Assembly: GCA_046314355.1 (NCBI GenBank) | Contig: JBKBWQ010000001.1 | Coordinates: 800,001-864,000, forward strand | Direction: 5' to 3' | DNA: 64,000 nt | From: Candidatus Altimarinota bacterium | Lineage (GTDB): Bacteria; Patescibacteriota; Gracilibacteria; 1-14-2-50-48-13 | Part shown: one piece after another, positions 5,753-38,538 of the stretch | How the letters are laid out: each line of letters begins with the position of its first letter | Position numbering within the stretch: position 1 is the first letter of the stretch | Program-made: the position numbers and the translations under genes | The notes under the pieces: generated by a model | Database searches by the model: none | The model's input: only the letters and a program-made list of their open reading frames with translations | Told to the model about the DNA's origin: nothing

Positions 5753-8700
5753 TTAATATCCTTTCACTAATACTATTATCTTCGCCGCCTCTGCTCTTGT
5801 GAGCTTGTTTCCTGGGAAGAATACTCCAAGAGAATTTCCATCTGAATCCTTGTATCCATTTACGATTCCCATTTCATATGCAAAGTGGATGTATCTTGCA
5901 AACCATTCATCTGACGGAACATCAGTGAATACATCTGAAAGCCCGCTATGAATTTCCAAATCACTGAAAACTGTTCTTAAGATAAGCTTGAGAGCTTCTG
6001 CTCTGTTCACAAGATCATAAGGTCTGAATGTATTATCAGAGTATCCTTCAATCCATCCTTTTGCCTTTGCTACTCTCACAGCAAGGTCGAACCACTCAGG
6101 ATTCACATCTGAGAAAGGTTTTCCAGTCATGTTTGTATTCATTGGTACTTTCTTTCCGTCACATCCGAAGAGCATCTGTACGAGCTCTGAACGTGCTACA
6201 TAGGTATTTGGTCTGAATTCACCTAAAAGATTACCTGCTGCATCTTTATATCCTGTGAGACCGCATTTTGCAGCAAGTTTGAGAATATACATTTCTCCCC
6301 AATGTCCGCTAATATCATTGAATTTCATATCAGAATTACTGGAGGATCCGCCAGTACCTGTATTTCCATTCGTATTTGTACTAGTGCTTCCGCTTCCAGT
6401 AGCTGTAGAACCAGTGTTTGTATTAGTATTTCCCCCAGTACTCTGAGTTCCCTGAGCTGTTCCCACAGTTGAAGAAGTTCCTCCACCTCCACCACCTCCT
6501 CCTCCGCTTCCAGCAGTTGGAGTAGAAGAATTTTCAGCTACATTAAATGTTACGCTGTAGAGACTTGTTGCATCATTCTCAGCTGTCACTTCAATAGTTG
6601 CGGTATCACTTAAAGTCGCAGCTTGATTAGCAACCATAGTTGCTCCGGAGTTTGACACCACTCCAGAGATTGTTGGCACTGTCGTAGTCCCTGCAGGGAG
6701 ATAAACTACATAGGTATATGTAGATGGTGAGAAAGCTGGAACAAGGCTTCCTGACGATGTTGTAAGAGAGCTAAGAGTTGCATCTCCATTAGCTTGTGAA
6801 AAAGTAATCAAACCAAGTGCTGCATTATCAGGCTGATGAACCATTTTAAGTTCTATAAGATTCGCAGCAAGCAGACCTGCAAAATTATTTACTGTAGCCG
6901 TAACGTTACCTGCATAAGGTGCTCCTGTTGTCATAGAAGCTCCATTGGAAGCAGCATATTCAGGATAAGCAGTAGTCTGCGTCTGAGAATTCGCAAAGGT
7001 CTGATCATCGAGTTTAATAAAATTTCCAAGTGAAGCAGCAAATGTATTCTTTGTATTAGCTGTACCGCCGAAGACTACAGTACCGTACGTTGCTCCAGTG
7101 GAATTGTGGTTAAGGAATGTTACACCATTACCATTCGTACCATTAAAAGTATTCTTATTAAAAGTAATGTCCATTGCTCTAGGCGCAATCATACCGCTTG
7201 TGATTACCTTATTTGTGATCACAATATTATCAAAGGTACTGAGAGATGCCTCAGGAGTAAATGTATTTCCTTCAATAGTTACATTTGTGGAATTTGCATT
7301 ATTGATAGCCACTCTATGCTTTGTAAATGTATTATTTTTTACAAGTACTGGAGCTGAAGAAACGTTCTTTATGAGAAGACTCTGAAGTCCAGGTGTCTTT
7401 GGAGCAAAGGTATTTGCCTCAATAGTGATATTCCCACCTGAATTTGGCTCTGTAATATCAATACCCGCCCCCTGTATTTCATTGTATGAAATCTCCAATG
7501 GACCATTAGAAAATTGACTTAAGATATCATTATAGGAAAAAATAGTATTTTTCTTATCATCTGCTCCTCCGATAACTCCACGTACCTGTGCAACATAGAT
7601 CCCTCGTCCAACAAAGGGAGTCTGCGCATCAACACCATAAACTGTATTTCCATAAATATTTACCTCTGTAGTTGTTCCTGTTACTTCTATACCATGTGAT
7701 CTCCATGGAGCATTTACATCCATGATGAGATTATCATGAATAGTAACAAGTCCAGGAATATTGGTTGCCTTTATACCATTTTGCGCACTAGCATTTGTGA
7801 GCTGAATGGTAAGATGATGTATATTCACATCTGCAGCCGTAATACTTACTATACTAGTACCATTACCAGTAAGGACAGTACCTCCTCCACTCTCACTACC
7901 TGCTATTTCAAGTGATTTATTGATCGTGATATTCTCTGGAAAAGTTCCCTCAGCAATGCTAATCACATTTCCGTTCTGAGTTACCATATCGTCAATGGCA
8001 CTCTGAATAGTACAGAATGAAACACCCTTTGTAGTGTTCTCTGCCACGATAGTTCCTGCTACACCTACTGTTCGTGGAGTAACGCCTCCATTATCATAGA
8101 TGTTAGCACATACCACTGGAGAATTTCCTCGTCCAAAGTATTGATCAGAAATATTACTCTGATCTCCGTCTGATCCTGGAGCGGTTGAACTTACTCCCAT
8201 AACATAAGGTGTATGACCTGCTTGCTGCTGAAGATCTACATCATTGCCGCTAAGTTCATTTCCGTAGACGGTCATCGCAACTCCCTCCACCACAATACCA
8301 AATCCTTCACTAGTGCTCGGTTGTACATAACCTGATACTTCATTATTTTTTAGTACAACACCTCTTGGGATATCAGCATTATTATTTGCTGCTATCCATC
8401 CTCTTCTCATAACTGCTATGCCTGCCATGTCTCTGACATCTCCACTTGCAATGGGACCTGTCATACTCACTTTATTCCCAGAAACAACAATACTACCATC
8501 ACCAGATTCTGCTCCAGTACCATTTGGGACCTTGATTTCAATTCCGAATCGTCCGTTATTTGTCAGGATATTATCTGCAATAATGTTTGCACCTGCTCCA
8601 GAAGTCAGTCCTGTTGCAGCAATTCCATTATCAGTATTACCAGTAACTGTATTTCGTGAAATATTTACTCCTGAAGCTGAACCATCCTGAAGCTCGATAC

Positions 8701-9322
8701 CGCAACAGTTATTTCCAGTTACCGTATTATCTGTAATTGTAATGTTTTTCTTAAATCCGTTCCAGATAACAATACCTCGTGTCTTGTTATTAGAAGAAAT
8801 TACATGAGTAATAGTGACTCCATCAACTGGTCCATTAGCATAGATACCCGCAGGGTTTGATCCACCTGAGATACCATTACCACTAACCGTAGTGTTATTA
8901 ATATTTAATCCGTTGTTTCCTCCATTCGCGTGAATACCACTTCCCATAGTAAAGTTCTGAACAACGAGATTTGCTATCTCAACATTTATCGTACCAGTAG
9001 TGATAAAAATTCCATTACCAGCCTTTGAAGTACCATCGATAATAGTACCTGTCCCAGTTCCCACTAGCTGAAGCGTCTTACTTACAGTTACATTTTCATT
9101 ATATGTACCTGCATCAATTTGAATAATATCACCTGCCGTGGCAGCATCTATTGCAGCTTGAATTGTTGTATATGTTTGTGTTGGTCCAACATTGTGGGTA
9201 GTAGGTCCTACCGCTTGTGCTACAAAAAAACTGACGGACATGATAGCTGCAGCTGCGACAAAAAACGTACGAAGAGACGTGCGATTCATTCGCATCCACA
9301 TGCTTTGAGTAGTCAAATTCAT
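5753..9322 (-). CDS. Large surface protein: parallel beta-helix repeats, cadherin-like beta-sandwich, Gly/Thr linker, three C-terminal SLH domains
   Basis: Signal peptide; TIQAAIDAA/GTYNENV beta-helix caps (twice); LSSLT..L.PAFSP.TY.Y; SLH motifs GY.D..FRP...RAEA. Confidence 0.88.
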   Translation of the reverse strand: MNLTTQSMWMRMNRTSLRTFFVAAAAIMSVSFFVAQAVGPTTHNVGPTQTYTTIQAAIDAATAGDIIQIDAGTYNENVTVSKTLQLVGTGTGTIIDGTSKAGNGIFITTGTINVEIANLVVQNFTMGSGIHANGGNNGLNINNTTVSGNGISGGSNPAGIYANGPVDGVTITHVISSNNKTRGIVIWNGFKKNITITDNTVTGNNCCGIELQDGSASGVNISRNTVTGNTDNGIAATGLTSGAGANIIADNILTNNGRFGIEIKVPNGTGAESGDGSIVVSGNKVSMTGPIASGDVRDMAGIAVMRRGWIAANNNADIPRGVVLKNNEVSGYVQPSTSEGFGIVVEGVAMTVYGNELSGNDVDLQQQAGHTPYVMGVSSTAPGSDGDQSNISDQYFGRGNSPVVCANIYDNGGVTPRTVGVAGTIVAENTTKGVSFCTIQSAIDDMVTQNGNVISIAEGTFPENITINKSLEIAGSESGGGTVLTGNGTSIVSITAADVNIHHLTIQLTNASAQNGIKATNIPGLVTIHDNLIMDVNAPWRSHGIEVTGTTTEVNIYGNTVYGVDAQTPFVGRGIYVAQVRGVIGGADDKKNTIFSYNDILSQFSNGPLEISYNEIQGAGIDITEPNSGGNITIEANTFAPKTPGLQSLLIKNVSSAPVLVKNNTFTKHRVAINNANSTNVTIEGNTFTPEASLSTFDNIVITNKVITSGMIAPRAMDITFNKNTFNGTNGNGVTFLNHNSTGATYGTVVFGGTANTKNTFAASLGNFIKLDDQTFANSQTQTTAYPEYAASNGASMTTGAPYAGNVTATVNNFAGLLAANLIELKMVHQPDNAALGLITFSQANGDATLSSLTTSSGSLVPAFSPSTYTYVVYLPAGTTTVPTISGVVSNSGATMVANQAATLSDTATIEVTAENDATSLYSVTFNVAENSSTPTAGSGGGGGGGGGTSSTVGTAQGTQSTGGNTNTNTGSTATGSGSTSTNTNGNTGTGGSSSNSDMKFNDISGHWGEMYILKLAAKCGLTGYKDAAGNLLGEFRPNTYVARSELVQMLFGCDGKKVPMNTNMTGKPFSDVNPEWFDLAVRVAKAKGWIEGYSDNTFRPYDLVNRAEALKLILRTVFSDLEIHSGLSDVFTDVPSDEWFARYIHFAYEMGIVNGYKDSDGNSLGVFFPGNKLTRAEAAKIIVLVKGY

Positions 9323-11322: not shown

Positions 11323-11868
11323 ATGCTCAATACACTTATACTTATAGCTATCTCAGCAGTCATTGTGCTGATTATTGTCTTTTTCTATCAGCTGCTGGCA
11401 AGGATGCGCGGCGCTCCTGTGGTGATCGCCCATGATGAGACAATGAAAAAAGCACTGACACTACTTGCACTGAAAGCCGGAGATACACTCTATGATTTGG
11501 GGAGCGGCAATGGAAAAGTACTGTTTTATGCAGAAAAAACATATAGCGTAAAGACAATTGGGATCGAGGCAGCATTTCTGCTAGTACTTTACACAAAAGT
11601 AGTAGGATTTTTCAAAAAAAGTAAGACACACTTTATCCACGGAGACTTCACTAAAATGACGCTTCCAGTGAAACCTGATGCGATCTATTTGTTTTTGATG
11701 AAACCGATCCTTTTGAAGATGGACCATGTATTTGACGCACTTCCCTCCGGCACAAAAATCGTCTCACCTGTATTTGAGATAAAGCATCCAAGAATAGTAG
11801 AAAAAGAAAAAGTCAAAGATGATCTCTTTAGTAAAGGACAGTTTATATACCTTTATGAAGTAAAATAA
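11323..11868 (+). CDS. Membrane-anchored class I SAM-dependent methyltransferase
   Basis: N-terminal TM; YDLGSGNGK motif I; GDF. Confidence 0.85.
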   Translation: MLNTLILIAISAVIVLIIVFFYQLLARMRGAPVVIAHDETMKKALTLLALKAGDTLYDLGSGNGKVLFYAEKTYSVKTIGIEAAFLLVLYTKVVGFFKKSKTHFIHGDFTKMTLPVKPDAIYLFLMKPILLKMDHVFDALPSGTKIVSPVFEIKHPRIVEKEKVKDDLFSKGQFIYLYEVK

Positions 11869-11913
11869 AAAAGACCATCCACTCTCGTGAGATGATCTTT
11901 CATTTTTTTATCT

Positions 11914-12510
11914 TTATACTAATACTTCATTCTTTTTTGCAGTAGGTAATTTGTCTCTCCATAAAGCAAAAAACATAAAAGAAGTGATAATAACAAACAC
12001 TGCGGGCTGTAATGCAGCTTCCCATGTAAATGTATCAACAGATGCCCATAGGAATAGACACGAGAACCAGTTAATTAACCATGCAATTGGATCTTCTTCA
12101 GGAGTATGCAAATTGTGAACACCCATAGGATAGAAGGCAACAAGCATAGCAAACTGACTCGAAATAATCCCAAATAGCGGATCAGTTGAAAATCCCCATA
12201 AGAGAATTCCGAGAATCGCCATTACAAAGCAAATCTTGTCTTCTGTACTCCATCCTTTTTGTCCGTACTTATAGGCAATGAAAGCAATAGCAAAGCTTGT
12301 CATTACTGCCGCTAGATTGACTAAATTCCAGCTTTTAGCAATAAACATACTGACAAACCCTAATACATCTAATCCAGCCCAGATAATCCAGGTTACCTTA
12401 TACGTTTCCTTTCCATTCAGGAGACTTTTTATGTAAAGAACTCCTGAGATGATGAAGAGTACACTCGCTATAATCTCTAAGATTCCTTTTCCCACGTTAT
12501 TTCCTTTCAC
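11914..12510 (-). CDS. Hypothetical multi-pass membrane protein
   Basis: About 7 hydrophobic segments with duplicated TWIIW/AWLINW motifs. Confidence 0.75.
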   Translation of the reverse strand: MKGNNVGKGILEIIASVLFIISGVLYIKSLLNGKETYKVTWIIWAGLDVLGFVSMFIAKSWNLVNLAAVMTSFAIAFIAYKYGQKGWSTEDKICFVMAILGILLWGFSTDPLFGIISSQFAMLVAFYPMGVHNLHTPEEDPIAWLINWFSCLFLWASVDTFTWEAALQPAVFVIITSFMFFALWRDKLPTAKKNEVLV

Positions 12511-12678
12511 CTCTTTCGAGGATTTTTTGTTTTAATATTTATACGTACAAAATAACACTAATTTTATTTTTATCAATTAATTCAGTCAGTTTATCCATAG
12601 TTCTGGGTACTAATTGATTTCTTCAGACTTGCCTTTCATCCAAAAATCCACATAGTAGAGGTACTTAACTGACGTTTT

Positions 12679-13653
12679 ATGAAATCTATAAAAGAACAAC
12701 TTTTTCGAACAGTCGTAGAAATCCCTGAGTCTACAGTAAAGATTGATCATACACTTCCTACACTCATGATTGGTTCCTGCTTCACTGAAAATATGGGAGC
12801 TTTTATGCAGCATTCCAAATTTCCCATCATCATTAATCCTACCGGCATAGTCTACAATCCCCTCTCTGCACTGAGAGTATTGGAAGTGCTTATGAGTAAG
12901 AAAATATACACTGCCTCCGATCTATTTTTTTCAAACGGTCTCTGGGCTTCCTATGATCATCATGGAAGTTTTTCTTCCAGTTCTCAGGAAGAGTGTCTCA
13001 CCAAGATTAATACTGCTCTCTCAAATGCAAGAGCACATCTTGAAAAAACAAAGATACTTTTTATTACCTTTGGAACCTCATGGATCTATAGATTGAAAGT
13101 AACAGGAAAAGTTGTCTCAAACTGCCACAAACAGCCTGATACTTTATTTGAGAGATCTCTACTTAAAGTAGATGAAATAACAGATGCATATAAAATTGTC
13201 CTGGAAAAACTCCATACGCTCTACCCTGACCTTCATGTTGTCTTTACTGTAAGCCCCATAAGGCATTGGAAAGAGGGAGCTCACAATAATCAGATCAGCA
13301 AGTCTCTCCTGCATATTTCCATTGAAAAGTTGACTTCAAATTTTTCATATACAGGATATTTCCCAAGCTACGAAATAGTTATGGATGAGCTTCGTGATTA
13401 CCGGTTTTATACTGAAGACATGCTGCATATCTCAGATGCTGCTACCAGATACATATGGGAACGGTTTCAAGAAACTTTTATGTCCCCTGAGACCCGTACT
13501 CTTTCAAAAGAAATTGAAGATATACAAAAATCACTCTTGCATCGTCCTTTCAATTCTGATACAACACAACATAATCAATTCAGAGACAAGTTATCCCAGC
13601 GCATTCAAAACCTGGTACATACATATCCTTTTTTGATTTTCGAAGGAATTTAG
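12679..13653 (+). CDS. GSCFA domain protein
   Basis: IGSCF, NP.GIVYNP, ITFGTSW, NCHK, FTVSPIRH, YFPSYEIVMDELRDYRFY..DMLH. Confidence 0.9.
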   Translation: MKSIKEQLFRTVVEIPESTVKIDHTLPTLMIGSCFTENMGAFMQHSKFPIIINPTGIVYNPLSALRVLEVLMSKKIYTASDLFFSNGLWASYDHHGSFSSSSQEECLTKINTALSNARAHLEKTKILFITFGTSWIYRLKVTGKVVSNCHKQPDTLFERSLLKVDEITDAYKIVLEKLHTLYPDLHVVFTVSPIRHWKEGAHNNQISKSLLHISIEKLTSNFSYTGYFPSYEIVMDELRDYRFYTEDMLHISDAATRYIWERFQETFMSPETRTLSKEIEDIQKSLLHRPFNSDTTQHNQFRDKLSQRIQNLVHTYPFLIFEGI

Positions 13654-13669
13654 AGGATTACAGTTCAAG

Positions 13670-14653
13670 ATGAATCTTTATGTTAAGGAAATTCTTCATA
13701 CCCTGGTAGACAGTCGAAATACTAGTGAAGAAGTGGATATTGCAATAGGGTACGGCTCTGCCGTAATGGAACATGGTGATCAGCGAAAATCCCCAGGTCT
13801 GGATATAATATTAGTTGTAAAAGACGTCATTCGTTTTCATCAAGTAAATATGAGAAAGTACCCAGAGGACTATTCTCTTTTGATGCATCTAGGAGGAGCA
13901 GAAATGTTTACTAGGATTCAAGATACAGGAGGCGCGATTTCATATAATTTAATGACTACACCTAAGAATCATAGACAGGAATACGGAGCTTCTCAACGAA
14001 TAATCAAGTACGGAGTAATCAGTACTGAAGCCTTTATCAAAGATCTCAGAGAATGGCTGAGACTCTATGTCGCCGGAAGAATGCATAAACCCTTTTATAT
14101 CATTAAGCAGGGTTCTGCGGAAATTCAGGAAGTAATAGAAGAAAACCTTAGCTTTGCAGTAAGAGTTGCACTACTTTTATTAGCAAAGGATGAAGTGACA
14201 CATGAAGAACTTTTTAAAGCGATCACTTCCCTCTCCTACATGGGAGATCCGCGTCCTGAACATCCTGATAAGGTCCGAAATATTGTCTCTGCAAATAGAG
14301 AGCAGTTTCATTCTCTCTATAAAAATGTGCTCACAAATAATGAATTTTTTCAGAATGATCAAGATGCAAAACTGATCTTGCCTCCTCATGCCCGTGACTA
14401 TATGAAGCTGCATCTACCAAAGCAAGTAGCAGCAATGCTTCCTGAATTCTATATGACATTTGATGATAATGTCTTTCAAAAAGTCATGACTGACGCTATT
14501 CAAAGAATCGTTTCACAGCCGGCACTTATACAGATTTTTAAAGGTGTTTTGACAGGCAAGCCTTCAGAGACTATTCCCTATGGAATCAGCAAAGGACTGA
14601 AATCACCAAAAATTAGAAAAATACTTACGCCATTTGGGTATAGAGAAAAATAG
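13670..14653 (+). CDS. Tam41/Mmp37-type phosphatidate cytidylyltransferase (CDP-DAG synthase) homologue
   Basis: YGS...DIILVV, H..N....DYS, IKYGVIS, DL.EW..LYVAGRMHKP, LSYMGDPR..HPDKVRNIV, Q..KG.LT: Tam41 family signature blocks in order. Confidence 0.85.
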   Translation: MNLYVKEILHTLVDSRNTSEEVDIAIGYGSAVMEHGDQRKSPGLDIILVVKDVIRFHQVNMRKYPEDYSLLMHLGGAEMFTRIQDTGGAISYNLMTTPKNHRQEYGASQRIIKYGVISTEAFIKDLREWLRLYVAGRMHKPFYIIKQGSAEIQEVIEENLSFAVRVALLLLAKDEVTHEELFKAITSLSYMGDPRPEHPDKVRNIVSANREQFHSLYKNVLTNNEFFQNDQDAKLILPPHARDYMKLHLPKQVAAMLPEFYMTFDDNVFQKVMTDAIQRIVSQPALIQIFKGVLTGKPSETIPYGISKGLKSPKIRKILTPFGYREK

Positions 14654-14759
14654 AATGCTTAAAGTAAATCATAGACATTTACCCTGTCTGCGTGCTATAA
14701 TTCATCGATAAGGCTGTCTTCGCCAGATCCATTCTTTACATTCTCTGATTCTCCTTCCT

Positions 14760-16022
14760 ATGCGTATGAATGAAAAGCAGGTGCTCTCACATTTATCTGA
14801 AAGCGCTCTTTCTGCCCATAAACGTGCAGCTGTATTCAAAAAGCTCTCCTATAAGGAGCAGGCACATATGCTCAATCTTCTTGATAGTAAGACGAAGAAG
14901 AAACTTCTTGATACCTTGAAAAATAAAGAAATTGTACCACCACTCGAACATCTGGATCCTGATGAGGCAACAAATGCACTAAAAATGCTCCCGCCAAAAC
15001 GACAGAAAAAGATCATAGAAGAACTCTCTAAACAGCTCAAAGAAGGTATACAGGTGCTCTCTCAGTTTGATCCTGAAACAGCAGCAGGACTGATGAATCT
15101 AGATTACATCCAGATTGAGCAGGATGATGTACTCTCCAGCGTTATCAAGAAGTTTAAGGAGCACGAAGCTCGAAGAGGCAGACCACCTACTATTATAGTT
15201 ATAAAAAAGAATGAAATTACGGGGTATCTTCCCGGTTATTCATTAGGAATTGGAAAACACACGGATAAAGTAAAGAAATTTACTAAAAATATCCCGACTA
15301 TTCAGTTTGACGCGGATCATGATGAAGTCCTCCAGACCTTTAAAGATAATCCCCATAATCAGGTCGTGGTACTTGGAGATATTGGAAATGTACTTGGTAT
15401 CATTTATTCGGACGATATCTTAAGAGTGATGGAAGAACAGAAGTCTGCATCTCTATACGATTTTGCCGGTGTCCATGATGAAGAAGGTGTATCAGATGGT
15501 ATGATGATCAAAGTACACTCTCGATATAAATGGCTTATTATCAATCTAGGTACTGCTTTTCTCGCTGCTTTTACAGTAGGACTCTTTGAACCCATCATTA
15601 CAAAATATGTACTGCTCGCAGTATATATGCCAATCGTAGCTGGAATGGGAGGAAACGCCGCTACTCAGACCCTTGCGGTAGTGGTAAGAGGTATCGCTCT
15701 CAAGCAGATAGATCTTAAAAGCGCATGGCATACTCTCAAAAATGAGATTGGAGCTAGTGTCATCAATGGACTTATCAATGGTATCATTGTTGCCGCTATT
15801 GTACTTATTTTTAACAGAGATTGGAAAATCGCGATCATATTAGGATTTGCAATGATCTTCAATCTATTAGTTGCAGCATTATTCGGAACGATAGTACCGC
15901 TGATCATGCAGAAACTTGGAAAAGACCCTGCTACTTCAGCAACAATTTTTATTACAACAGCCACAGATGTACTTGGATTTATGGCTTTCCTAGGACTTGC
16001 GACACTGATTTTAGGAATGTAG
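14760..16022 (+). CDS. mgtE: Magnesium transporter MgtE
   Basis: N-domain, ETAAGLM, CBS pair, GMGGNAATQT, DPATSATIFITTATD. Confidence 0.93.
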   Translation: MRMNEKQVLSHLSESALSAHKRAAVFKKLSYKEQAHMLNLLDSKTKKKLLDTLKNKEIVPPLEHLDPDEATNALKMLPPKRQKKIIEELSKQLKEGIQVLSQFDPETAAGLMNLDYIQIEQDDVLSSVIKKFKEHEARRGRPPTIIVIKKNEITGYLPGYSLGIGKHTDKVKKFTKNIPTIQFDADHDEVLQTFKDNPHNQVVVLGDIGNVLGIIYSDDILRVMEEQKSASLYDFAGVHDEEGVSDGMMIKVHSRYKWLIINLGTAFLAAFTVGLFEPIITKYVLLAVYMPIVAGMGGNAATQTLAVVVRGIALKQIDLKSAWHTLKNEIGASVINGLINGIIVAAIVLIFNRDWKIAIILGFAMIFNLLVAALFGTIVPLIMQKLGKDPATSATIFITTATDVLGFMAFLGLATLILGM

Positions 16023-16140
16023 AATACAGTTTAAGAAAATACCTGGGCAGAAATATTTCTACCCAGGTATATCATTAAGCTAATTTTTTATTTGAATTAA
16101 TCTCATGCTTTATTGCTCCGTCGAGCAGTAAAGCAGTTTT

Positions 16141-16182
16141 TTATACTACTTTTTCCAGAAACTCTTCCAAATCTTCCTTCAT
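16141..16182 (-). CDS. Possible 13-aa microprotein MKEDLEEFLEKVV
   Basis: Strong SD (GGGAGG) 7 nt before ATG; stop followed by a hairpin. Confidence 0.35.
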   Translation of the reverse strand: MKEDLEEFLEKVV

Positions 16183-16337
16183 AGAGACACCTCCCTTTTC
16201 TATTAATAACATTATTTATAGTACTAATGAACTCTTAAAAATCATTAAGATAAAACATTCTATTAGTTCACCACATTTACATTACGGTAACAAGGTGCTA
16301 TATTCTTCCTAGTTTACTACATAGCTTCCCGTTTCTT

Positions 16338-16769
16338 ATGAAAGAAAATACCCATATCGGAGTGTACGGCGTCGTAGAACAGGATGGAAAAGTACTGATG
16401 ATTAAGAAAACAAGAGGAGCCTATAAAGGTCAGTATGATCTCCCGGGAGGTGGTATCAAATTTCGTGAAAGTATTGAAGATGCGCTTAGAAGAGAGTTTA
16501 TGGAAGAAGTAGGTGTAGAAATAGAAACCATCAAAGCTTTGGAAAATTCTTGTAAAACCTCCATTTGGAATAATAATGCAGATGACGTGGAGACACATCA
16601 TATCGGCATGTATTACCGAGTCACCATAAAGCCAGGTCAGGCAGTAAAAACTGAACCAGACGGTCATGACTCTGCCGGATGTGAATGGATCGAGAAAGAT
16701 CAACTTACTGATACACCCGTCGCAAGTATCTTAATACCTATTCTCGCACTTATACAGTGCACTAAGTAG
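16338..16769 (+). CDS. NUDIX hydrolase
   Basis: LPGGGIKFRESIEDALRREFMEEVG Nudix box. Confidence 0.92.
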   Translation: MKENTHIGVYGVVEQDGKVLMIKKTRGAYKGQYDLPGGGIKFRESIEDALRREFMEEVGVEIETIKALENSCKTSIWNNNADDVETHHIGMYYRVTIKPGQAVKTEPDGHDSAGCEWIEKDQLTDTPVASILIPILALIQCTK

Positions 16770-19766: not shown

Positions 19767-22313
19767 CTATTCTTTATCGGCAAATACAACTAGCCGTTTA
19801 GAATACTGCTGTTGTTTCTTATCCCATACCCCGTCGCAAGTAATAAGATTCAAGTGCGCCTTACCGTCGCTAGAGCTGAAAATGGCAGCTGCATCATCAG
19901 AAGCACCATAAAGTTTGCTCTCACGCACAATAAATGAAACTATATTCCCTTTCTCATCCTTTACTAAAATCTTATCTCCTGGTTTTAGTTTTTGTAAATC
20001 TGCAAATACACCTCTCACATTATTGATCCAGTTGAGGTGTCCATCCATCACTGCGCTGCCAATATCACCTGGGTATGTTCCAAGTTCATACCAGCCTGCA
20101 TCAGAATAAGACTTTGGAATGTCCATCGCACCGTCTGCTGTCAGCCCTACTTTCTGGACTGCAGCATTAACCGCGATACTTGGGATAATAATATTTACTG
20201 GCAACACCCTTGTTTCAGGCACAACCCCTGTTTTTGGAAGCTTAGGAATAATAACAGGTGAAACAACGATAGGTGCTGGAACTGGAGCAGCGACTGGGGT
20301 GATAGCAGCAGGGACTCCAGGAACTGGAAGTGCAACAACTACAGTAGCTACTGCAATATCTCTGACTCTTATACCATTGCCAGTACCGCTCGCGATAGCA
20401 GTGTTTGTAGTAGTAGTTCTTAGGTATGCTCTACACGTATAGATCCATCTTTCATTCGTATCAAGCTTTGAATCTTTGTTTGTATCTCCAGAAACATATC
20501 TCACAGGGCGACATTTATCATCCGTCAAAGTCACGTTACTAAGTGGGACAGTACCAGTATTATTAATGATTTCTGTATAAGTTGCCCACCCCCCGCCTGA
20601 AGGTAAAGTAAGTGGTCTTGGAATTTTTATTACATGAATAGAAGGAGCCACAATAGGCTCGCCGACTATAACAGTAGCACTGGCTATGTCTACAGTACTG
20701 ATGTTATTTGCCCACCCAGTGGCAACTACTGTATTTGTATGAGTCTCTGTAAGTGTTGTGGTGCATTTATGTACCCAGACTTCCGTCAGATCAAGGATTG
20801 CATTCCCGTTGGTATCTCCTGAGAATAAGGCAATAGGACTGCATGTATCCCCCACTAACGTGATATTATTTACTACTACTGTTCCAATATTACGTAGAGT
20901 GTACGTATATTCTACTGCTCCAGGACCATTAGGTAGAGCAAGAGGACTTGGGGTTTTTACAATATCAATAAGCGGAGGAACTGCAGGTGTAGTAACTGGT
21001 GTACTCACAGGAGGAGTATATCCCCCTCCACCACCGGAAGTGGGAGGGAAAGGAATATCATTATTTGTAATAATACAAAAACGTGCCTCACTCACATTGA
21101 GCGTAACAATACCTAACGCATTACAGTCACCGGAAAATGACTGCGTATAATTAGGGTCAGCCGTTTCTGTCACCGTATATATAGCTGGAGCAAGTGTATT
21201 TGTAATACCTGAGACAACAGGTGCCCCATTGATGAATAATGGGAAATCGGCAATCACTTTAGTTCTGCCGCTATCATTGATCACCACCTTTGTGACTGTA
21301 ATTGTAGAAGGTGCAATATCATTATTTGTAACCGTACATGTCCTATCATTTTCTGATGCAAGAATAATATTTCCAGCCGCATCACAATCTCCGCTATAGG
21401 TCACCGTATACCCAGCAAGTGCATCTTCACTTACCGCGTAGGTACCTGGATCCAAAACATAAGTAGTCCCCAATACATCAACTCCTGCCTGCGGGCTGCC
21501 TGCAACATCAATGCCGCCTGTAGTTACATGCAGTGTCGCATCAGAAGAAACTCCAATACCTGTATTATCATTAATCACTGTCTTGATTACATGAAGCGTT
21601 GCAGTACATGTGGGAACAGTAATAGTATTCGTATCAGTAGTCACAGTACCTGCCCCAAGCGACAATGCTCTACCATTCCAAACTGTATTTGCTCCGATAG
21701 TAATGGCTGTAGCATCATCAATCACAGTTCCAGCAAAAATAGTATTTGCCGCAAGAGTAGTCGCTGCGGTTGGCGTCCAAAATACATCGCAAGCTGATGC
21801 TCCAAGTAGCGTCACAACGGAACCCGCCGTAGACGTAAGTGCTCCTGTCGGTCTAAAAATATAGGTACCCGCACCGCTCAATGTAAGTGGTCCTCCGATA
21901 TCCATAGCACCCGTGCTACAGTAGACTCCAGGTGTATATACTCCAACTGGACCATGAGTTGCATCTGTGGAAAGATCGATAGCTCCAGCAGCAAAAGTAA
22001 AGGTACAAGGTTGAACTCCTAAAGCACCAAGCGCAGTATTTACATCAATACGCGCAGCCGGTGTAGGGGCACCAGGACCATAACTGGTATGAATACCAGC
22101 AGGTACCGTTGCCGGTGGAGTAGTAAATCCAATACCGCCGTCGATCGTTGTACCCGCGGCAACATTCGTATATGTTCCTGCAAGAACGCCGTAAGTCTCA
22201 CCTGTTCCAAGATCAGGAGTCGTAGCTGCATTAGCCACATTTCCTGAGAAACCAAATAATAATGTAAAAGCGAATACGACTACAATCGTATTCTTCCTAA
22301 GGAAATTTATCAT
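19767..22313 (-). CDS. Ice-binding-like (DUF3494) secreted protein with Ig-like repeats, LPKTG motif and fused class F sortase domain
   Basis: Signal peptide; YGVLAG, TPGVYC, YIFR, ACDVFW, FAGTVI, GRAL (DUF3494); two pairs of repeats; LPKTG; sortase motifs AGWY, GSAVMDGH, LNLITC, YSKRLVVFA. Start could be 22343. Confidence 0.87.
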   Translation of the reverse strand: MINFLRKNTIVVVFAFTLLFGFSGNVANAATTPDLGTGETYGVLAGTYTNVAAGTTIDGGIGFTTPPATVPAGIHTSYGPGAPTPAARIDVNTALGALGVQPCTFTFAAGAIDLSTDATHGPVGVYTPGVYCSTGAMDIGGPLTLSGAGTYIFRPTGALTSTAGSVVTLLGASACDVFWTPTAATTLAANTIFAGTVIDDATAITIGANTVWNGRALSLGAGTVTTDTNTITVPTCTATLHVIKTVINDNTGIGVSSDATLHVTTGGIDVAGSPQAGVDVLGTTYVLDPGTYAVSEDALAGYTVTYSGDCDAAGNIILASENDRTCTVTNNDIAPSTITVTKVVINDSGRTKVIADFPLFINGAPVVSGITNTLAPAIYTVTETADPNYTQSFSGDCNALGIVTLNVSEARFCIITNNDIPFPPTSGGGGGYTPPVSTPVTTPAVPPLIDIVKTPSPLALPNGPGAVEYTYTLRNIGTVVVNNITLVGDTCSPIALFSGDTNGNAILDLTEVWVHKCTTTLTETHTNTVVATGWANNISTVDIASATVIVGEPIVAPSIHVIKIPRPLTLPSGGGWATYTEIINNTGTVPLSNVTLTDDKCRPVRYVSGDTNKDSKLDTNERWIYTCRAYLRTTTTNTAIASGTGNGIRVRDIAVATVVVALPVPGVPAAITPVAAPVPAPIVVSPVIIPKLPKTGVVPETRVLPVNIIIPSIAVNAAVQKVGLTADGAMDIPKSYSDAGWYELGTYPGDIGSAVMDGHLNWINNVRGVFADLQKLKPGDKILVKDEKGNIVSFIVRESKLYGASDDAAAIFSSSDGKAHLNLITCDGVWDKKQQQYSKRLVVFADKE

Positions 22314-22573
22314 TATATTTGGGTAACAGTTATATACTGACAATCATATCACGAATACTGCTTTACATGTAAAAAATCTATTGTTGAATTATAAAACTCT
22401 GTTAATTGATTAGGATACATATCCATCAAAAAGTAAATTAATCTCCTAGCTCCTGGTAGGCATAGCGTAATGGATACTCCTAAATCATATCGTAAATAAA
22501 CTTAACTTTTGATAACCTTGATTTTTAGCAGCATTAGAAATATTATTATCTATTATTTTCTGATGACTCTCCT

Positions 22574-36207: not shown

Positions 36208-38538
36208 CTAGAACTTCAAGAAAATAAATCCGCTCATTGTACTCATAAACCCTCCAAGCAGTGCAAGCACAATATTCTTCTCATTCTCCACTGGATGAGT
36301 ATTTGTAAATACTTCAGATGAAACAACATCACCTTGAACAGCGACATTTGCAGAATATCCTGCGGTAATTTGTGAGACATTCTCTATTGCAATGTCCTTA
36401 AGATTCGGAAGAGTAGTATTACCCGGTGCTTTTACAATAGAAGCAGTAGTTTTCGGCAAAACCTTAACCGTAGATTTAACTGCCGTCTTTACTTGAGTTT
36501 TTGCAGAGCTCACTGTAACCTTTTCATCATTTTTTATATCAACAGTTATAGTCTCCCCTGCTCCAGGATCTGTATATTCTAAAGTATCTATTACAACGCC
36601 GTCTTGAGATTTAAGCGCAATAGTTCCTGAATTTGGAATAGTCTTTGCAATATCTTCACCGGATAGCTTTTTCTTTTCTCCGGAAGCTATAGCGAGAGTA
36701 GATTTGAGAGCAGTATCCTTATCATTGATACTGATTATAAGTCCATTTAGTTCAACATTATCCTTCCCTGTATTCTGGATTTCAATCCATTCTGATGCCT
36801 TTGTATCTGTACCATCTGGATTTGGAAACAGAGCAGTTATTTTTAAATCCGAAAAGCCTCCTGCAATTCCCTGGCTAGCTCCTGCTTCTGTCATAATGAA
36901 AGGCGCAGATGCAAAGGACTGTACTTTATTGATATCTGTAATTTTTACTATAAGAGCCATATCAACAACACCGTCGGAATCCCATGAAAAATTTCCTAAT
37001 GCGTCACTTCTTACTTCTGCCACGAATTCTTCACTGGCAGTATATATCCCTACAGTCGCCGCGGGGAGAGTTCTTCCCGTCAGCATACCGTTTGCAGCAT
37101 GCAGTATGATCATATCCGCAAGGAGCTTCTTGTAGAAATACTTCTGAAATCCTCCAGTGAGTTCCTGCCCTTTATCATAGAAATCCGGCAGACCATTTTT
37201 GTTGGAATCAAAACGGGATGTAAGTGTTCCAAAATACTCTTCGTCATGCTTATTGAGCATATCTCCATCTTTGTCCTCAAGATATGTATAGGCGATAATA
37301 TTTTCTTTTCCTTGTGTCGGGAAATCTGTAGCTCCATAGAGCGCCGGGACTTCCTGAGTTGTAAATATTCTTCGAGTATTATTATATCTCGCAAAACTCT
37401 GCCCGCCCTTAAGAGGATAGATATGAATCTCATCTGCAATATTCCGCTCGCTATCCAGCAGATAAAACACATTTGCAGACTGCATCTGTGTTGAGAGGCT
37501 TAGTACTTTATAATTTTTAGAGTAGAGAAAAGTATTTGCATCAAACTTTATGCATGAGCTCTTTACAGTACATTTTCCTTCCTTCTCAGTAGTGATCATC
37601 CATCCACTGATATCAATTTTTTTCTGTGCAGATGATGTCAGTTCCATCCATGAACTATTATCTATAGTACTGCCTGAGCCTAGATATACTTCGTTGATTT
37701 TAGCGCCGTAATTTTTCACCTTTTGTAGTCCTCGCTCTACTCTAAAATGAGCTTCTTCTATCTTTGAAGATCTCCCTTCCACCACAGCATAGAATAAAAT
37801 ATCCATATCTGCTTCCAGCACGAGTGGTCCTTTATAGACTTCTTGAGACGCGGGATCAGGATTATTCCCATCGAGCGAATAATAAATATCTGCATCAGGA
37901 TTAGAACTAGATAATATGATCTTTGTTCCAAATGGATATGATCCGTCAATATGATCAGACATAACTTCAAGACTATCCTTCATATTTATATTTCCCGGAG
38001 TGGCAGGAGTGGATTCAAGGGAACAGAAAAGCAGTTCATAGACATCACAGAATCTACTGAGAGACTTCCCTTTTACAAGATCAGTTTTTGTATACTCAAC
38101 CATGTCCCGCTCTGTACCGTCAGTGCTTTTGAGTGTAATAGTATCTCCGCTATTATTCATGCTTACTGACTTCTCAAGCAGTACATATCCCTTTCCACCA
38201 ATAGTTACTTCATCGTTTATTGTAAAAATCGTGCCATTCTTGTTTGTTAGAGACCATTTATTCAAAGAGACAGCTTCGGATCCATAATTATAAAGTTCCA
38301 TGAATTCTTTTTCTCCCTTGGTAGTATCGGGATTTGCATATACTTCGTTGATAACTACAGTATACACATCTGATGCACCTGCATTATCTGACATACTGTT
38401 TATAGTGCCTTTTGTCGGGATAGTCCATTCCCAGACTCCCTCTTCTGCATAGCTTATCTGCAGGGCACCAGCTAATACAGCTGAAAAAATACACACCTGC
38501 AGCACTCTTATTCCAAATATACTTTTGACGCGGTTCAT
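36208..38538 (-). CDS. Secreted multi lamin-tail-domain (LTD) surface protein with C-terminal membrane anchor
   Basis: Three LTD-like blocks (VVINEVYANP..EFMELYN; INEVY...WMEL; PNPDG.D...EWIEIQN), Fn3-associated IYYSLDG..P, C-terminal hydrophobic tail. Confidence 0.82.
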   Translation of the reverse strand: MNRVKSIFGIRVLQVCIFSAVLAGALQISYAEEGVWEWTIPTKGTINSMSDNAGASDVYTVVINEVYANPDTTKGEKEFMELYNYGSEAVSLNKWSLTNKNGTIFTINDEVTIGGKGYVLLEKSVSMNNSGDTITLKSTDGTERDMVEYTKTDLVKGKSLSRFCDVYELLFCSLESTPATPGNINMKDSLEVMSDHIDGSYPFGTKIILSSSNPDADIYYSLDGNNPDPASQEVYKGPLVLEADMDILFYAVVEGRSSKIEEAHFRVERGLQKVKNYGAKINEVYLGSGSTIDNSSWMELTSSAQKKIDISGWMITTEKEGKCTVKSSCIKFDANTFLYSKNYKVLSLSTQMQSANVFYLLDSERNIADEIHIYPLKGGQSFARYNNTRRIFTTQEVPALYGATDFPTQGKENIIAYTYLEDKDGDMLNKHDEEYFGTLTSRFDSNKNGLPDFYDKGQELTGGFQKYFYKKLLADMIILHAANGMLTGRTLPAATVGIYTASEEFVAEVRSDALGNFSWDSDGVVDMALIVKITDINKVQSFASAPFIMTEAGASQGIAGGFSDLKITALFPNPDGTDTKASEWIEIQNTGKDNVELNGLIISINDKDTALKSTLAIASGEKKKLSGEDIAKTIPNSGTIALKSQDGVVIDTLEYTDPGAGETITVDIKNDEKVTVSSAKTQVKTAVKSTVKVLPKTTASIVKAPGNTTLPNLKDIAIENVSQITAGYSANVAVQGDVVSSEVFTNTHPVENEKNIVLALLGGFMSTMSGFIFLKF

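Follow-up and report, generated by a model that had tools for sequence, protein, structure and literature searches.

The 64,000-nucleotide stretch analysed here (the window; positions 800,001 to 864,000 of contig JBKBWQ010000001.1, assembly GCA_046314355.1) carries an intact gene of the Tam41/Mmp37 family, lodged in the genome of what we take to be a Peregrinibacteria-class CPR bacterium. Our favoured reading, which we hold at somewhat better than even odds (a probability of roughly 0.55), is a joint one: that the gene encodes a working prokaryotic Tam41 which makes CDP-diacylglycerol (CDP-DAG) from scavenged phosphatidic acid (PA), as the cell's only route to it; that the CDP-DAG is consumed by a phosphatidyltransferase of the PLD superfamily; and that the gene, long resident in this genome, is a member of a small prokaryote-like clade that branches deeply.

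Bacterial Tam41 has already been described and the window protein is not new in kind; for that reason, the initial annotation overrated its novelty. In the available text of PMC11646218, Kimura 2022 (J Biochem 171:429) is cited for a bacterial Tam41 that makes CDP-DAG and binds membranes through its C-terminal part, and the PDB entry 7ECD is titled as Tam41 from a Firmicutes bacterium with CTP-Mg.

The features discussed below are as follows.

12679..13653, + strand: GSCFA-family gene of 324 aa, upstream of the Tam41 gene and co-oriented with it (PF08885, 304.6 bits)
13653..13657, + strand: Shine-Dalgarno-like GAGGA, 12 nt 5' of the Tam41 ATG, read from the sequence
13670..14653, + strand: Tam41/Mmp37-family gene, putative CTP:phosphatidate cytidylyltransferase (ORF, PF09139, PDB matches, AF2 model)
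13958..13999, + strand: lineage-specific loop insertion, residues ~97-110 of Tam41, TPKNHRQEYGASQR (alignments A1 and A3)
14465..14650, + strand: basic C-terminal region of Tam41, residues 266-327, candidate peripheral membrane-binding part (charge, model)
14672..14701, + strand: promoter-like site between the Tam41 stop and an MgtE gene, TAGACA-18-TATAAT (consensus match alone)

Family membership and conserved residues

The open reading frame at 13670..14653 starts with ATG, ends with TAG and codes for 327 aa, exactly at the position and on the + strand originally given. Pfam places the protein in Tam41_Mmp37 (PF09139) with an E-value of 4.8e-65 and 220.5 bits against a cut-off of 24, the match taking in 291 residues (19-309) and profile positions 9-320 of 322; a six-frame search of the genome with the same model returns 216 bits at this gene. 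Sequence searches of the PDB recover 6ig2_A (4.1e-31, 111.7 bits) and 7ecd_A (1.2e-24, 90.5 bits), no NCBIfam model matches the protein, and neither does PF01148 (CdsA) nor PF01864 (CarS-like). The proposed Tam41/Mmp37 identity is thus upheld by the Pfam search that had been suggested for it, with sequence and fold in agreement.

The window protein retains every one of the 25 columns that do not vary in a 15-sequence alignment of diverse homologues (A1), including D45, H57, N60, Y68, K113-Y114-G115, D125 and W129, and further along G136-R137, K140-P141, N159, S189-Y190, G192-D193, R195, E197 and K201. Seven motif blocks had been claimed, and five of these are present as written, namely YGS (28-30), D.I..V (45-50), IKYGVIS (112-118), DL..W..LYVAGRMHKP (125-141) and Q..KG.LT (288-295); the remaining two are also there, each having been given with one spacer off by one residue, and should read H..N....P..YS (57-69) and LSY.GD.R..HP.KV.NIV (188-206). 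According to the portion of PMC11646218 available, Tam41 keeps one of the three acidic residues of nucleotidyltransferases (NTases), a statement that the window protein fits, having one Asp (D45) after its G-S motif.

Predicted structure

The AF2 model of the protein (pLDDT 86.8, pTM 0.87) conforms to the plan of the solved Tam41 structures, an NTase domain followed by a winged helix (PMC7018664). Foldseek's top five PDB matches are all Tam41 entries (7ecd, 6ig2 and 6ig4; E 5e-17 to 1e-11), the best being 7ecd (E 5e-17, TMt 0.84, 26% identity), with the S. pombe entries 6ig2 and 6ig4 at TMt 0.66-0.69 and about 29-30% identity; the matches that follow are generic NTases, at E 3.6e-4 or worse. 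Between two strands of the NTase domain sits the 14-residue loop insertion, which is missing from all 14 other aligned homologues, the closest ones included, and residues 99-104 within it form the sole stretch of the model with pLDDT <50.

No transmembrane segment is seen in the protein (maximum Kyte-Doolittle 19-mer 1.32). Residues 266-327 carry a net charge of +7, as against -4 for residues 1-265, and are modelled with helices at 266-295, 298-311 and 313-322, whose hydrophobic moment is moderate (at most 0.44). For the S. pombe enzyme, membrane binding has been attributed to a positively charged C-terminal amphipathic helix (reviewed in PMC7018664), and a comparable peripheral role for this region may be envisaged here.

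As a separate observation, the nearest clusters in a protein atlas are those of eukaryotic Tam41, with distant bacterial clusters (Gemmatimonadota, Pseudomonadota) at TM ~0.7 that bear no family name.

Genomic context, residence and assembly

The stop codon of the GSCFA gene lies 16 nt from the Tam41 gene, with the GAGGA motif sitting within this gap, and the two genes are probably co-transcribed. Downstream, the promoter-like site matches 11 of 12 consensus positions and has an extended -10 TG; placed as it is 5' of the MgtE gene, it suggests that GSCFA and Tam41 form a separate two-gene unit. The GSCFA protein (AF2 pLDDT 89.5) has an SGNH/GDSL-like fold, with Foldseek matches to SGNH-type esterases/acyltransferases only (TMt <=0.59). 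None of 68 other genomes of the class has a homologue of it, and its nearest named homologues belong to Bacteroidota, where those with a genus or family name are 46-49% identical to it. Neighbourhood clustering of 31 Tam41 loci revealed no neighbour conserved across lineages, repeats occurring only within near-identical genomes, and synteny with same-family genomes was uninformative (an MgtE neighbour in one of three, at 31% identity).

The genome is a metagenome-type assembly of 1.69 Mb, 98.26% complete and with 3.38% estimated contamination. Its size, along with the failure to find a ketoacyl synthase, PlsC or CdsA in it, accords with the CPR-like host originally proposed, as does the identity of the Tam41 N-termini of two same-class carriers to Candidatus Peregrinibacteria sequences.

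This kind of assembly, its contamination estimate and the presence of two genes foreign to the class, GSCFA and Tam41, might lead one to suspect that the gene entered the contig through mis-assembly or contamination, an explanation we consider extremely improbable. The gene sits ~814 kb into a contig of 1,619,055 bp, and its composition is native: against 198 length-matched ORFs it falls at the 40th percentile for GC, the 47th for GC3 and the 2nd for codon-usage distance. Moreover, a Logan contig of 23,013 bp, built by a different assembler, spans 11500-16500 of the window with 0 differences, no joints and no change in depth; this is an independent assembly and not an independent sample, since its run may be the source sample. 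The stretch is absent from another run of that study, X3, and no RNA run is listed as containing it. To the extent that our tests reach, then, the contig shows no chimeric joint at this gene, mid-contig position, native composition and the Logan bridge all pointing the same way, and long residence of the gene forms part of our joint reading.

It may also be asked whether the gene has lost its function and survives only as a relic of a former pathway, drifting towards decay. Two other carriers in the class do have damaged copies (an in-frame TAG in G052, and a split into two ORFs in G522), and the genome yielded no CDP-alcohol transferase to act downstream (see below). Here, however, the reading frame is intact over 327 aa with every invariant column kept, a Shine-Dalgarno-like motif precedes the start codon, codon usage is unusually near the genome mean and the structural model is confident; we regard such a remnant as a very slim prospect.

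Phylogeny and relationship to mitochondrial Tam41

In our careful tree the window protein falls outside the named eukaryote clade (100/99*) and within a small prokaryote-like clade (98/96*) that is long-branched and set apart from the characterised members; this clade lies several nodes from the eukaryotes, outside a group in which CPR, DPANN and eukaryote sequences occur together. A quick tree had made it sister, weakly (80), to a Bacillota clade, a relationship that the careful tree does not reproduce. Like the Firmicutes enzyme 7ECD, its best structural match, the window protein is prokaryotic and presequence-less, but the two share only the 26% identity noted above and their clades are not sisters in the careful tree.

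With mitochondrial Tam41/Mmp37/TAMM41 (S. pombe 6IG2/6IG4; S. cerevisiae) the window protein shares the Pfam family, the NTase and winged-helix plan and a basic C-terminal part. Unlike the mitochondrial enzyme, it has no presequence (YGS begins at residue 28, with homology from residue ~19-20), it does not sit within the eukaryote clade as sampled, and no PGP synthase or CDP-alcohol-type cardiolipin synthase was found in the genome for it to feed. Its three closest relatives, of 301-320 aa, are likewise judged to be without a presequence, because they are short and their YGS also starts at residue 28.

The initial annotation raised the prospect of a eukaryote-to-bacterium transfer, in which a mitochondrial Tam41 gene would recently have been acquired minus its presequence. 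Consistent with such a donor, the best named sequence matches are fungal Tam41 proteins (~33% identity), the S. pombe entry 6ig2 outscores 7ecd by sequence (111.7 vs 90.5 bits), the gene is patchy in the class (11/401), and an AU test does not reject the joining of the window clade to the eukaryote clade (p 0.316). Set against this, the named eukaryote clade leaves the window clade out, the three closest relatives have no presequence, and identity to named eukaryotes is no higher than that to Peribacterales (about 33-34% for both). All the named eukaryotes sampled are fungi, and a second homology search, with alignment A1, brought up little but fungal names, so that a donor among unsampled eukaryotes is conceivable. 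A recent transfer appears unlikely in view of the fully native codon use and GC, and overall we give this scenario little credence. Nor is the label 'eukaryote-like' any better than 'prokaryote-like', given the missing presequence, the bacterial best structural match and the position outside the eukaryote clade. As for the suggested bearing on the origin of mitochondrial Tam41, our trees are too weak to settle it, since their backbone is weak and the AU test retains a sister relationship to eukaryotes.

Lipid gene inventory and proposed role

Searches of the genome found no match to PF01148 (CdsA) or PF01864 (CarS), and the CdsA signature KDX5PGHGGX2DRXD occurs in none of the six-frame ORFs. 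Equally, PF01066 (CDP-alcohol transferases; positive control, 13/14 genomes) has no match, and phmmer with two CAP proteins of the class, together with a CAP motif search, failed to find a CDP-alcohol transferase. Also without a match in the genome are PF01553 (PlsC), PF00109 (ketoacyl synthase), PF02666 (phosphatidylserine decarboxylase, PSD) and PF01219; within this inventory, the search for acylation enzymes covered PlsC, by PF01553, and PlsY, by a sequence motif only.

One candidate for a hidden CdsA, at G000:C1:1371343-1372566, was rejected: it encodes a PAP2 phosphatase joined to a polytopic domain and lacks the CdsA signature. It was the sole match when CarS-like and CAP proteins from the class served as phmmer queries, and the motif of its polytopic domain is one that we take to be polyprenol-kinase-like.

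What the genome does hold is a CTP synthase (753 bits), a YegS/Rv2252/BmrU lipid kinase of the YegS/DgkB type (TIGR00147, 129.2 bits vs a cut-off of 118.65) and two PLD/Cls-like proteins (G000:C1:605391-606497, minus strand, and 1187726-1189789, plus strand), each with two PLD domains, in whose sequences HxKx4D motifs can be read. The latter score best against cardiolipin-synthase models, below cut-off (136 and 81.4 bits vs 290), and match the PssA model over short stretches only (28.8 and 33.6 bits vs 314); a PDB sequence search with the 369-aa member returned only nucleases and a poxvirus-type nicking-joining enzyme (<=30.9 bits), and so gives no guide to the substrate. Of the three genes that the initial annotation proposed to look for (cdsA, pgsA and cls), cdsA and the PF01066 enzymes were therefore not found, whilst PLD/Cls-like proteins are present.

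From these observations we propose the following course of events. Tam41, as a soluble, membrane-peripheral nucleotidyltransferase, would transfer CMP from CTP onto PA to give CDP-DAG, an activity that we suggest by analogy with the characterised yeast and Firmicutes homologues. Since no fatty-acid-making or glycerol-phosphate-acylating enzymes were found, the PA presumably comes from scavenged lipid, and could be generated by the YegS/DgkB-type kinase acting on diacylglycerol or by PLD-type hydrolysis of acquired phospholipids. With no CdsA or CarS found, CDP-DAG would be reached in this cell through Tam41 alone, and may then serve as substrate for a phosphatidyltransferase of the PLD superfamily that works by chemistry like that of E. 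coli type I PssA; the only candidates seen are the two PLD/Cls-like proteins, and this last step is the most tentative of those we envisage. The scavenged-PA activation put forward in the initial annotation hence survives as the likely role, but what had not been foreseen is that CDP-alcohol transferases are missing from the inventory as well, which leaves that activation with no evident next step.

Several precedents bear on this proposal. In the available part of PMC6362211, yeast Tam41 is described as making CDP-DAG and as relieving PA accumulation in E. coli cdsA mutants; in a cdsA knockout it brings back phospholipids without rescuing growth. The proposed reaction (CTP + PA -> CDP-DAG + PPi) is shared with CdsA/CarS, the integral-membrane CDP-DAG or CDP-archaeol synthases, whose fold, in contrast, is unrelated to that of Tam41 (PMC7018664), and none of which was found in this genome. 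For the consumer, the accessible text of PMC8027125 describes type I PssA as a PLD-family enzyme that uses CDP-DAG and a non-integral precedent, and the genome's only phospholipid head-group enzymes are likewise of the PLD family; unlike PssA, however, its PLD proteins match the PssA model weakly and partially and are more cardiolipin-synthase-like, and the phosphatidylserine decarboxylase was not found.

CPR bacteria are thought to take lipids from their hosts, and how these are then tailored is largely obscure; a soluble CDP-DAG synthase found with a CTP synthase, a lipid kinase and PLD-type enzymes, and without the integral-membrane textbook steps that we searched for, makes head-group remodelling of scavenged lipid a testable proposal. 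PLD-type enzymes that use CDP-DAG may also be represented in Xanthomonas, by a cardiolipin/PE synthase that we mention as background and not as evidence. Among the best literature matches listed, none reports Tam41 with CPR, nor do the available portions of PMC11646218 and PMC7050145; subscription journals and supplements fell mostly outside the scope of this search, and a prior mention is possible.

Distribution and partner genes

Tam41 scores above cut-off in 11 of 401 genomes of the class, this one included, and in none of 400 other genomes of the phylum, in keeping with the sparseness of homologues claimed at the outset. Two scans of metagenome contigs recovered no close relative, the second returning three distant loci (L034-L036); the scan of genome contigs used a 6-sequence alignment (A2).

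Against our preferred reading, no known consumer of CDP-DAG tracks Tam41 across genomes. A PF01066 enzyme is present in 7/11 class carriers vs 18/58 non-carriers, a weak enrichment among genomes that are related, and 12 PF01066-positive genomes of the class have neither Tam41 nor a CdsA/CarS-like gene; with so loose an association, the notion that Tam41 and CarS-like genes are clean alternatives was dropped. PLD/Cls-like genes occur in 23/61 class genomes irrespective of Tam41 (the same-family genome G001 has one and lacks Tam41), and for this reason we view them as a lineage trait and not as a partner of Tam41. Also counting against the reading are the closer resemblance of the two PLD proteins to cardiolipin synthases, the want of a conserved neighbour among the 31 Tam41 loci, the merely moderate hydrophobic moment of the C-terminal helices and the unique loop insertion in the NTase domain. 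On the supporting side, all four other Peregrinibacteria/Peribacteria carriers (G041, G052, G446 and G448) have PF01066 and no CdsA over cut-off, as do two Tam41-bearing Bacilli/Firmicutes MAGs (G450 and G460). Bacillota-type carrier genomes, by comparison, have CdsA in 5/7 and PF01066 enzymes in 7/7, and this genome shows neither.

These patterns are pertinent to a rival that we think unlikely and yet deserving of serious attention, namely that a Tam41-fold nucleotidyltransferase here does another job, whether by cytidylylating or nucleotidylating lyso-PA, polyprenyl phosphate or a host-derived lipid, or by supplying CDP-DAG for a purpose other than head groups. Four of the 11 class carriers are without PF01066, three of these (G503, G507 and G654) also being without PLDc_2 domains, and two DPANN MAGs (G452 and G453) and a Pseudomonadales-labelled MAG (G456) carry Tam41 without CdsA, PF01066 or PLDc_2; the long branch of the window clade, away from characterised members, the unique loop in the NTase domain and the SGNH-like esterase/acyltransferase fold of the upstream GSCFA partner could all be accommodated in the same way. 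Weighing on the other side are the 25 family-invariant columns, all of them kept, the match of the fold to a CTP-bound bacterial Tam41 (TMt 0.84) and the fact that the fungal and Firmicutes branches, both characterised, make CDP-DAG; besides, the completeness of the other MAGs is not established, such that missing consumers may simply be unassembled.

Taken as a whole, the distribution of Tam41 is a scattered one, with copies in Peregrinibacteria, in DPANN archaea and in small genomes of gut Bacillota. We venture the broader speculation, doubtful as we consider it, that Tam41 is in origin a prokaryotic enzyme, belonging to symbionts that scavenge lipids and have reduced genomes (such as CPR, DPANN and small gut Bacillota) and providing a soluble means of re-activating stolen PA/DAG as CDP-DAG, which in this organism would feed a peripheral, PLD-type head-group pathway; the mitochondrial enzyme would then have come from such a lineage, being neither a eukaryotic invention nor alphaproteobacterial. 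If true, this would amount to a head-group route without CdsA and CDP-alcohol transferase, not described in bacteria. Present trees give no answer as to the origin of mitochondrial Tam41, and the scattered prokaryotic genes are the sampling needed to ask the question.

In this class, many genes for CDP-alcohol transferases are not accompanied by any known CDP-DAG synthase; together with the scattering of Tam41, this suggests that the inventory of CDP-DAG-making and -using enzymes in reduced prokaryotes is incomplete. In other genomes of the class, a short CarS-like gene adjoins the PF01066 gene.

Identity and fold of the Tam41-family protein

The initial annotation placed a Tam41 homologue in the window, and the position and length that it gave are exact:

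13670..14653, forward strand: Tam41 ORF, ATG to TAG, 327 aa

Five of the seven motif blocks listed for this protein match as given, with the other two present but each having one spacer off by a single residue. Family membership is borne out by the Pfam profile PF09139 (Tam41_Mmp37), which matches over nearly its full length (E 4.8e-65, 220.5 bits; residues 19-309 against profile positions 9-320 of 322), and the protein retains every one of the 25 columns found invariant in an alignment of 15 diverse homologues; no NCBIfam model matched it. By sequence, the mitochondrial Tam41 of S. pombe (6IG2 and 6IG4; 4.1e-31, 111.7 bits) scores higher among PDB entries than 7ECD (1.2e-24, 90.5 bits), whereas by structure the order is reversed. 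When Foldseek was run with an AlphaFold2 model built from a 15-sequence alignment (pLDDT 86.8, pTM 0.87), Tam41 entries took all five top places among PDB matches, led by the bacterial 7ECD (‘Tam41 from Firmicutes bacterium, complex with CTP-Mg’; E 5e-17, TMt 0.84) and followed by 6IG2 and 6IG4 (TMt 0.66-0.69); generic nucleotidyltransferases appear after these, at E 3.6e-4 or worse. The likeness to Tam41 extends to the predicted fold.

Tam41 has been characterised as a mitochondrial CDP-DAG synthase, unrelated to CdsA, with a nucleotidyltransferase (NTase) domain, a winged-helix domain and a basic C-terminal membrane-binding part (PMC7018664, in excerpt); of the three acidic residues in the NTase fold, it is described as retaining only one (PMC11646218, in excerpt). 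The window protein agrees with the latter remark in having a G-S motif and, after it, a single aspartate, D45. It is compatible with the domain plan in that residues 266-327 are helical in the model and basic (net charge +7 versus -4 for the remainder), though of moderate amphipathic moment, in a protein that has no transmembrane segment. No N-terminal presequence was found in it either. A 14-residue loop (about residues 97-110), seen in the window protein alone among the aligned homologues, is the sole stretch with pLDDT below 50.

Prokaryotic Tam41 as such is already known: Kimura et al. 2022 are reported (as cited in PMC11646218, in excerpt) to have described homologues from Firmicutes and Proteobacteria, together with a crystal structure and activity as a CDP-DAG synthase, and P0297, a Peregrinibacteria homologue, already carries the NCBI name ‘phosphatidate cytidylyltransferase’. 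On homology, we regard the window protein as quite probably a CDP-DAG synthase; even a true Tam41 would not be expected to rescue the growth of an E. coli cdsA knockout (PMC6362211, in excerpt).

Host and integrity of the contig

As far as could be tested, an assembly artefact does not account for the gene. The window occupies bases 800001-864000 of a contig of 1,619,055 bp, in an assembly of 1,688,208 bp that is estimated to be 98.26% complete and 3.38% contaminated. The gene lies at the 40th percentile of GC and the 47th of GC3 (681 long ORFs), and its codon usage departs little from the genome mean (2nd percentile of distance, 198 length-matched ORFs). A Logan contig of 23,013 bp, from a different assembler, spans 11500-16500 with zero differences, joints or depth changes; its run, labelled ‘hot springs metagenome’, may be the source sample, so that it provides an independent assembly and not an independent sample. 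With native composition and an agreeing second assembly, the chimerism at this gene that had been raised as a possible objection was not detected.

The host was correctly described as CPR-like. Relatives recovered by genome search have small genomes (0.7-2.0 Mb), the Tam41 N-termini of two same-class carriers, G041 and G052, are identical to Candidatus Peregrinibacteria bacterium sequences, and both the pattern of TGA recoding and the gene content of the window point the same way. Recoded TGA is expected in Gracilibacteria-type lineages; PLD-domain genes in class families f11 and f22 (e.g. genomes G024, G030, G047, G053 and G058) carry 1-8 in-frame TGA each, consistent with recoding in part of the class, and the standard code reads Tam41 and its neighbours in the window's genome. 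Other genes of the window encode SLH-domain, sortase, lamin-tail-domain, PMT-like and type-IV-secretion coupling proteins, the large ones being:

5753-9322, reverse strand: 1189-aa SLH and beta-helix protein
19767-22343, reverse strand: 858-aa protein with ice-binding-like, SpaA-like and sortase domains
36208-38538, reverse strand: 776-aa lamin-tail-domain protein
46348-48747, reverse strand: TrwB/TraG-type coupling protein

Phylogeny and distribution

A maximum-likelihood tree of 67 rows (LG+C20+F+G4 by PMSF; midpoint root only) was computed from eukaryotic, bacterial and archaeal homologues, leaving out one row with a long branch, labelled Pseudomonadales, as well as 28 of the 62 unnamed rows in a 91-row quick tree. 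The window protein joins P0082 (99/89*), then P0002 (100/99*), then P0084 (98/96*), all unnamed proteins without a presequence. This clade is separate from that of the Bacillota-type sequences (100/99*) and lies outside the eukaryote clade (100/99*), which comprises ten named eukaryotes, all fungi, and seven unnamed rows. The window protein is therefore firmly not nested in the sampled eukaryotes, and, just as firmly, no single origin shared with the remaining Peregrinibacteria copies is evident: among 200 bootstrap trees, class Tam41 never came together as one clade (0%), and other class members share a weakly resolved backbone with DPANN sequences. Four class rows have very long branches. 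A weak placement beside the Bacillota clade in the quick tree (80) is absent from the careful one, and an AU test did not reject a topology in which the window and eukaryote clades are joined (log-likelihood 15.3 lower, p-AU 0.316). With the deep branching order this weak, and named eukaryotes confined to fungi, the trees give no firm sign of where mitochondrial Tam41 arose. Of the initial interpretation, then, a Tam41 in a CPR bacterium stands; its ‘eukaryote-like’ label and its relevance to mitochondrial origins were not shown.

Tam41 is rare around the host. It exceeded the cut-off in none of 400 further genomes sampled throughout the phylum (one weak hit of 20.8 bits), in 11 of 401 class genomes with the window's own counted (6 families), and in none of the three other genomes of its own family. 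Damage is seen in two class copies: in that of G052 (L003 1459-2469) a TAG interrupts the frame after codon 236, past which homology runs on, and that of G522 (L044 1453-2407) is divided into two overlapping ORFs. A scan of the GTDB collection (one genome per species) confirmed at least 20 Tam41 loci; it rests on two peptide patterns and counts among the matches listed (at most 80 loci), and is thus a floor, not a census. Among the matches listed were Peribacterales, Peribacteria and Peregrinibacteria from the CPR, Woesearchaeota, Pacearchaeota and one Methanosarcinales-labelled MAG from the archaea, several gut Bacilli/Clostridia/Firmicutes MAGs, Coprobacillus sp. CAG:605, and one MAG each labelled Muribaculaceae and Pseudomonadales. 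If the archaeal bins are sound (loci L014, L015, L018, L021, L023 and L027), the substrate there would presumably be an ether lipid. Tandem pairs of Tam41-like ORFs occur in gut MAGs labelled Vescimonas and Muribaculaceae (L020 1223-3070 and L024 292-2311). When 1.84 billion representatives were searched exhaustively with HMMER, 1680 clusters matched at E <= 0.001, of which P0082 (53%, 320 aa) alone exceeds 50% identity to the window protein.

Lipid genes of the host and a proposed role

Whole-genome profile searches, with controls matched in well-known genomes, gave zero matches in the window's genome for CdsA (PF01148), CarS-like proteins (PF01864), CDP-alcohol phosphatidyltransferases (PF01066), PlsC-type acyltransferases (PF01553), ketoacyl synthase (PF00109), phosphatidylserine decarboxylase (PF02666) and DgkA-type kinase (PF01219). 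The following were found:

CTP synthase (NF003792, 753 bits)
YegS/Rv2252/BmrU-type lipid kinase (TIGR00147, 129.2 bits; cut-off 118.65)
PLD superfamily, two proteins with two PLD domains apiece (PF13091)

The PLD proteins lie in open frames of 369 and 688 aa with readable HxKx4D motifs, their best models being cardiolipin synthase at sub-cut-off scores (136 and 81.4 bits versus 290). When class CarS-like and CDP-alcohol transferase sequences were run by phmmer against all six-frame ORFs of the genome, one weak hit was returned, a fusion of a PAP2 phosphatase with a polytopic domain that lacks the CdsA signature (C1:1371343-1372566, reverse strand, equivalent to L047 1998-3170; 390 aa; PAP2 domain 66.2 bits). 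Its C-terminal motif, GD...AG..FG...K..EG, we take to be polyprenol/dolichol-kinase-like, and the fusion protein may be an undecaprenyl recycling enzyme. NUDIX hydrolases cleave nucleoside-diphosphate-X compounds, and a gene for one lies two genes downstream of Tam41 (16338-16769, forward strand).

Synthesising these findings, the simplest pathway that we can propose is one of scavenging. Diacylglycerol or phospholipid taken from outside would be converted to phosphatidic acid (PA) by the lipid kinase or by PLD hydrolysis; Tam41, by homology, would use CTP to turn PA into CDP-DAG; and, as a conjecture, a PLD-family transferase might then attach the phosphatidyl moiety to a new head group, a step for which type I PssA of E. 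coli offers a precedent (PMC8027125, in excerpt). CDP-DAG synthesis from scavenged PA is, in our estimation, the most likely function, and the whole proposed role has a probability of roughly 0.55. What seems to be new is the separate small Tam41 clade, a CPR host in which no de novo lipid-synthesis enzymes were found, and the absence of any match in its genome to a textbook CDP-DAG consumer; among the best-ranked matches of a partial literature, none named both Tam41 and a CPR term.

Do CDP-DAG consumers track Tam41?

Across 69 class genomes (61 relatives and 8 further carriers), PF01066 is present in 7/11 Tam41 carriers versus 18/58 non-carriers, an enrichment that is weak evidence since the sampled genomes are mutually related. 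PLD domains occur in 23 of the 61 relatives irrespective of Tam41, including the same-family G001, itself without Tam41. Outside the class, four Peregrinibacteria/Peribacteria carriers and two Bacilli/Firmicutes MAGs (completeness not given) have PF01066 without CdsA, which fits Tam41 as sole supplier of CDP-DAG; five Bacillota-type carriers have both. Set against this, PF01066 and PLD domains are both missing from three carriers in the class (G503, G507 and G654); CdsA, PF01066 and PLD are all missing from the Pseudomonadales-labelled MAG and from two Woesearchaeota MAGs (completeness not given); and no neighbouring gene was found to be conserved across 31 Tam41 loci. With consumers so patchy and no conserved neighbour, a different substrate or a different use for Tam41 stays a live rival to the proposed role. 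Pacearchaeota and Methanosarcinales-labelled MAGs have PLD domains only (completeness not given).

CarS-like genes, present in 9 of the 69 class genomes, are short (about 180-200 aa; PF01864 at 96.5 bits in G045) and often adjoin a PF01066 gene, a pair that we read from sequence as a putative archaeal-type CDP-lipid synthase module in bacteria. Such pairs lie at L004 809-1878 (G045), L007 1315-3203 (G039), G522:C48, G521:C71 and G032:C37. Twelve of the 69 genomes (G007, G012, G021, G022, G028, G029, G034, G035, G036, G046, G057 and G059) have PF01066 without Tam41 or a CdsA/CarS-like gene; either their enzymes use another CDP-alcohol, or their CDP-DAG synthase goes unrecognised.

The GSCFA neighbour

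Immediately upstream of Tam41 lies a second gene:

12679-13653, forward strand: GSCFA-family gene (PF08885, 304.6 bits)

It ends 16 bases before the Tam41 start on the same strand, with a GAGGA 12 nt ahead of that start and a strong promoter-like site after the Tam41 stop, before mgtE, such that the two look like one two-gene unit. A search of 68 other class genomes found no GSCFA in any of them. All of its closest relatives with a name come from Bacteroidota (46-49% identity where genus or family is given), two unnamed proteins are 66-67% identical, and it looks like a foreign gene now paired with Tam41. Its model (pLDDT 89.5) resembles SGNH/GDSL-type esterases and acyltransferases only, and distantly, with matches to E. 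coli thioesterase I/lysophospholipase L1 (TMt 0.59), PAF acetylhydrolase, PatB and CE2/CE3 esterases; the modelled fold would be compatible with a lipid-handling partner of Tam41.
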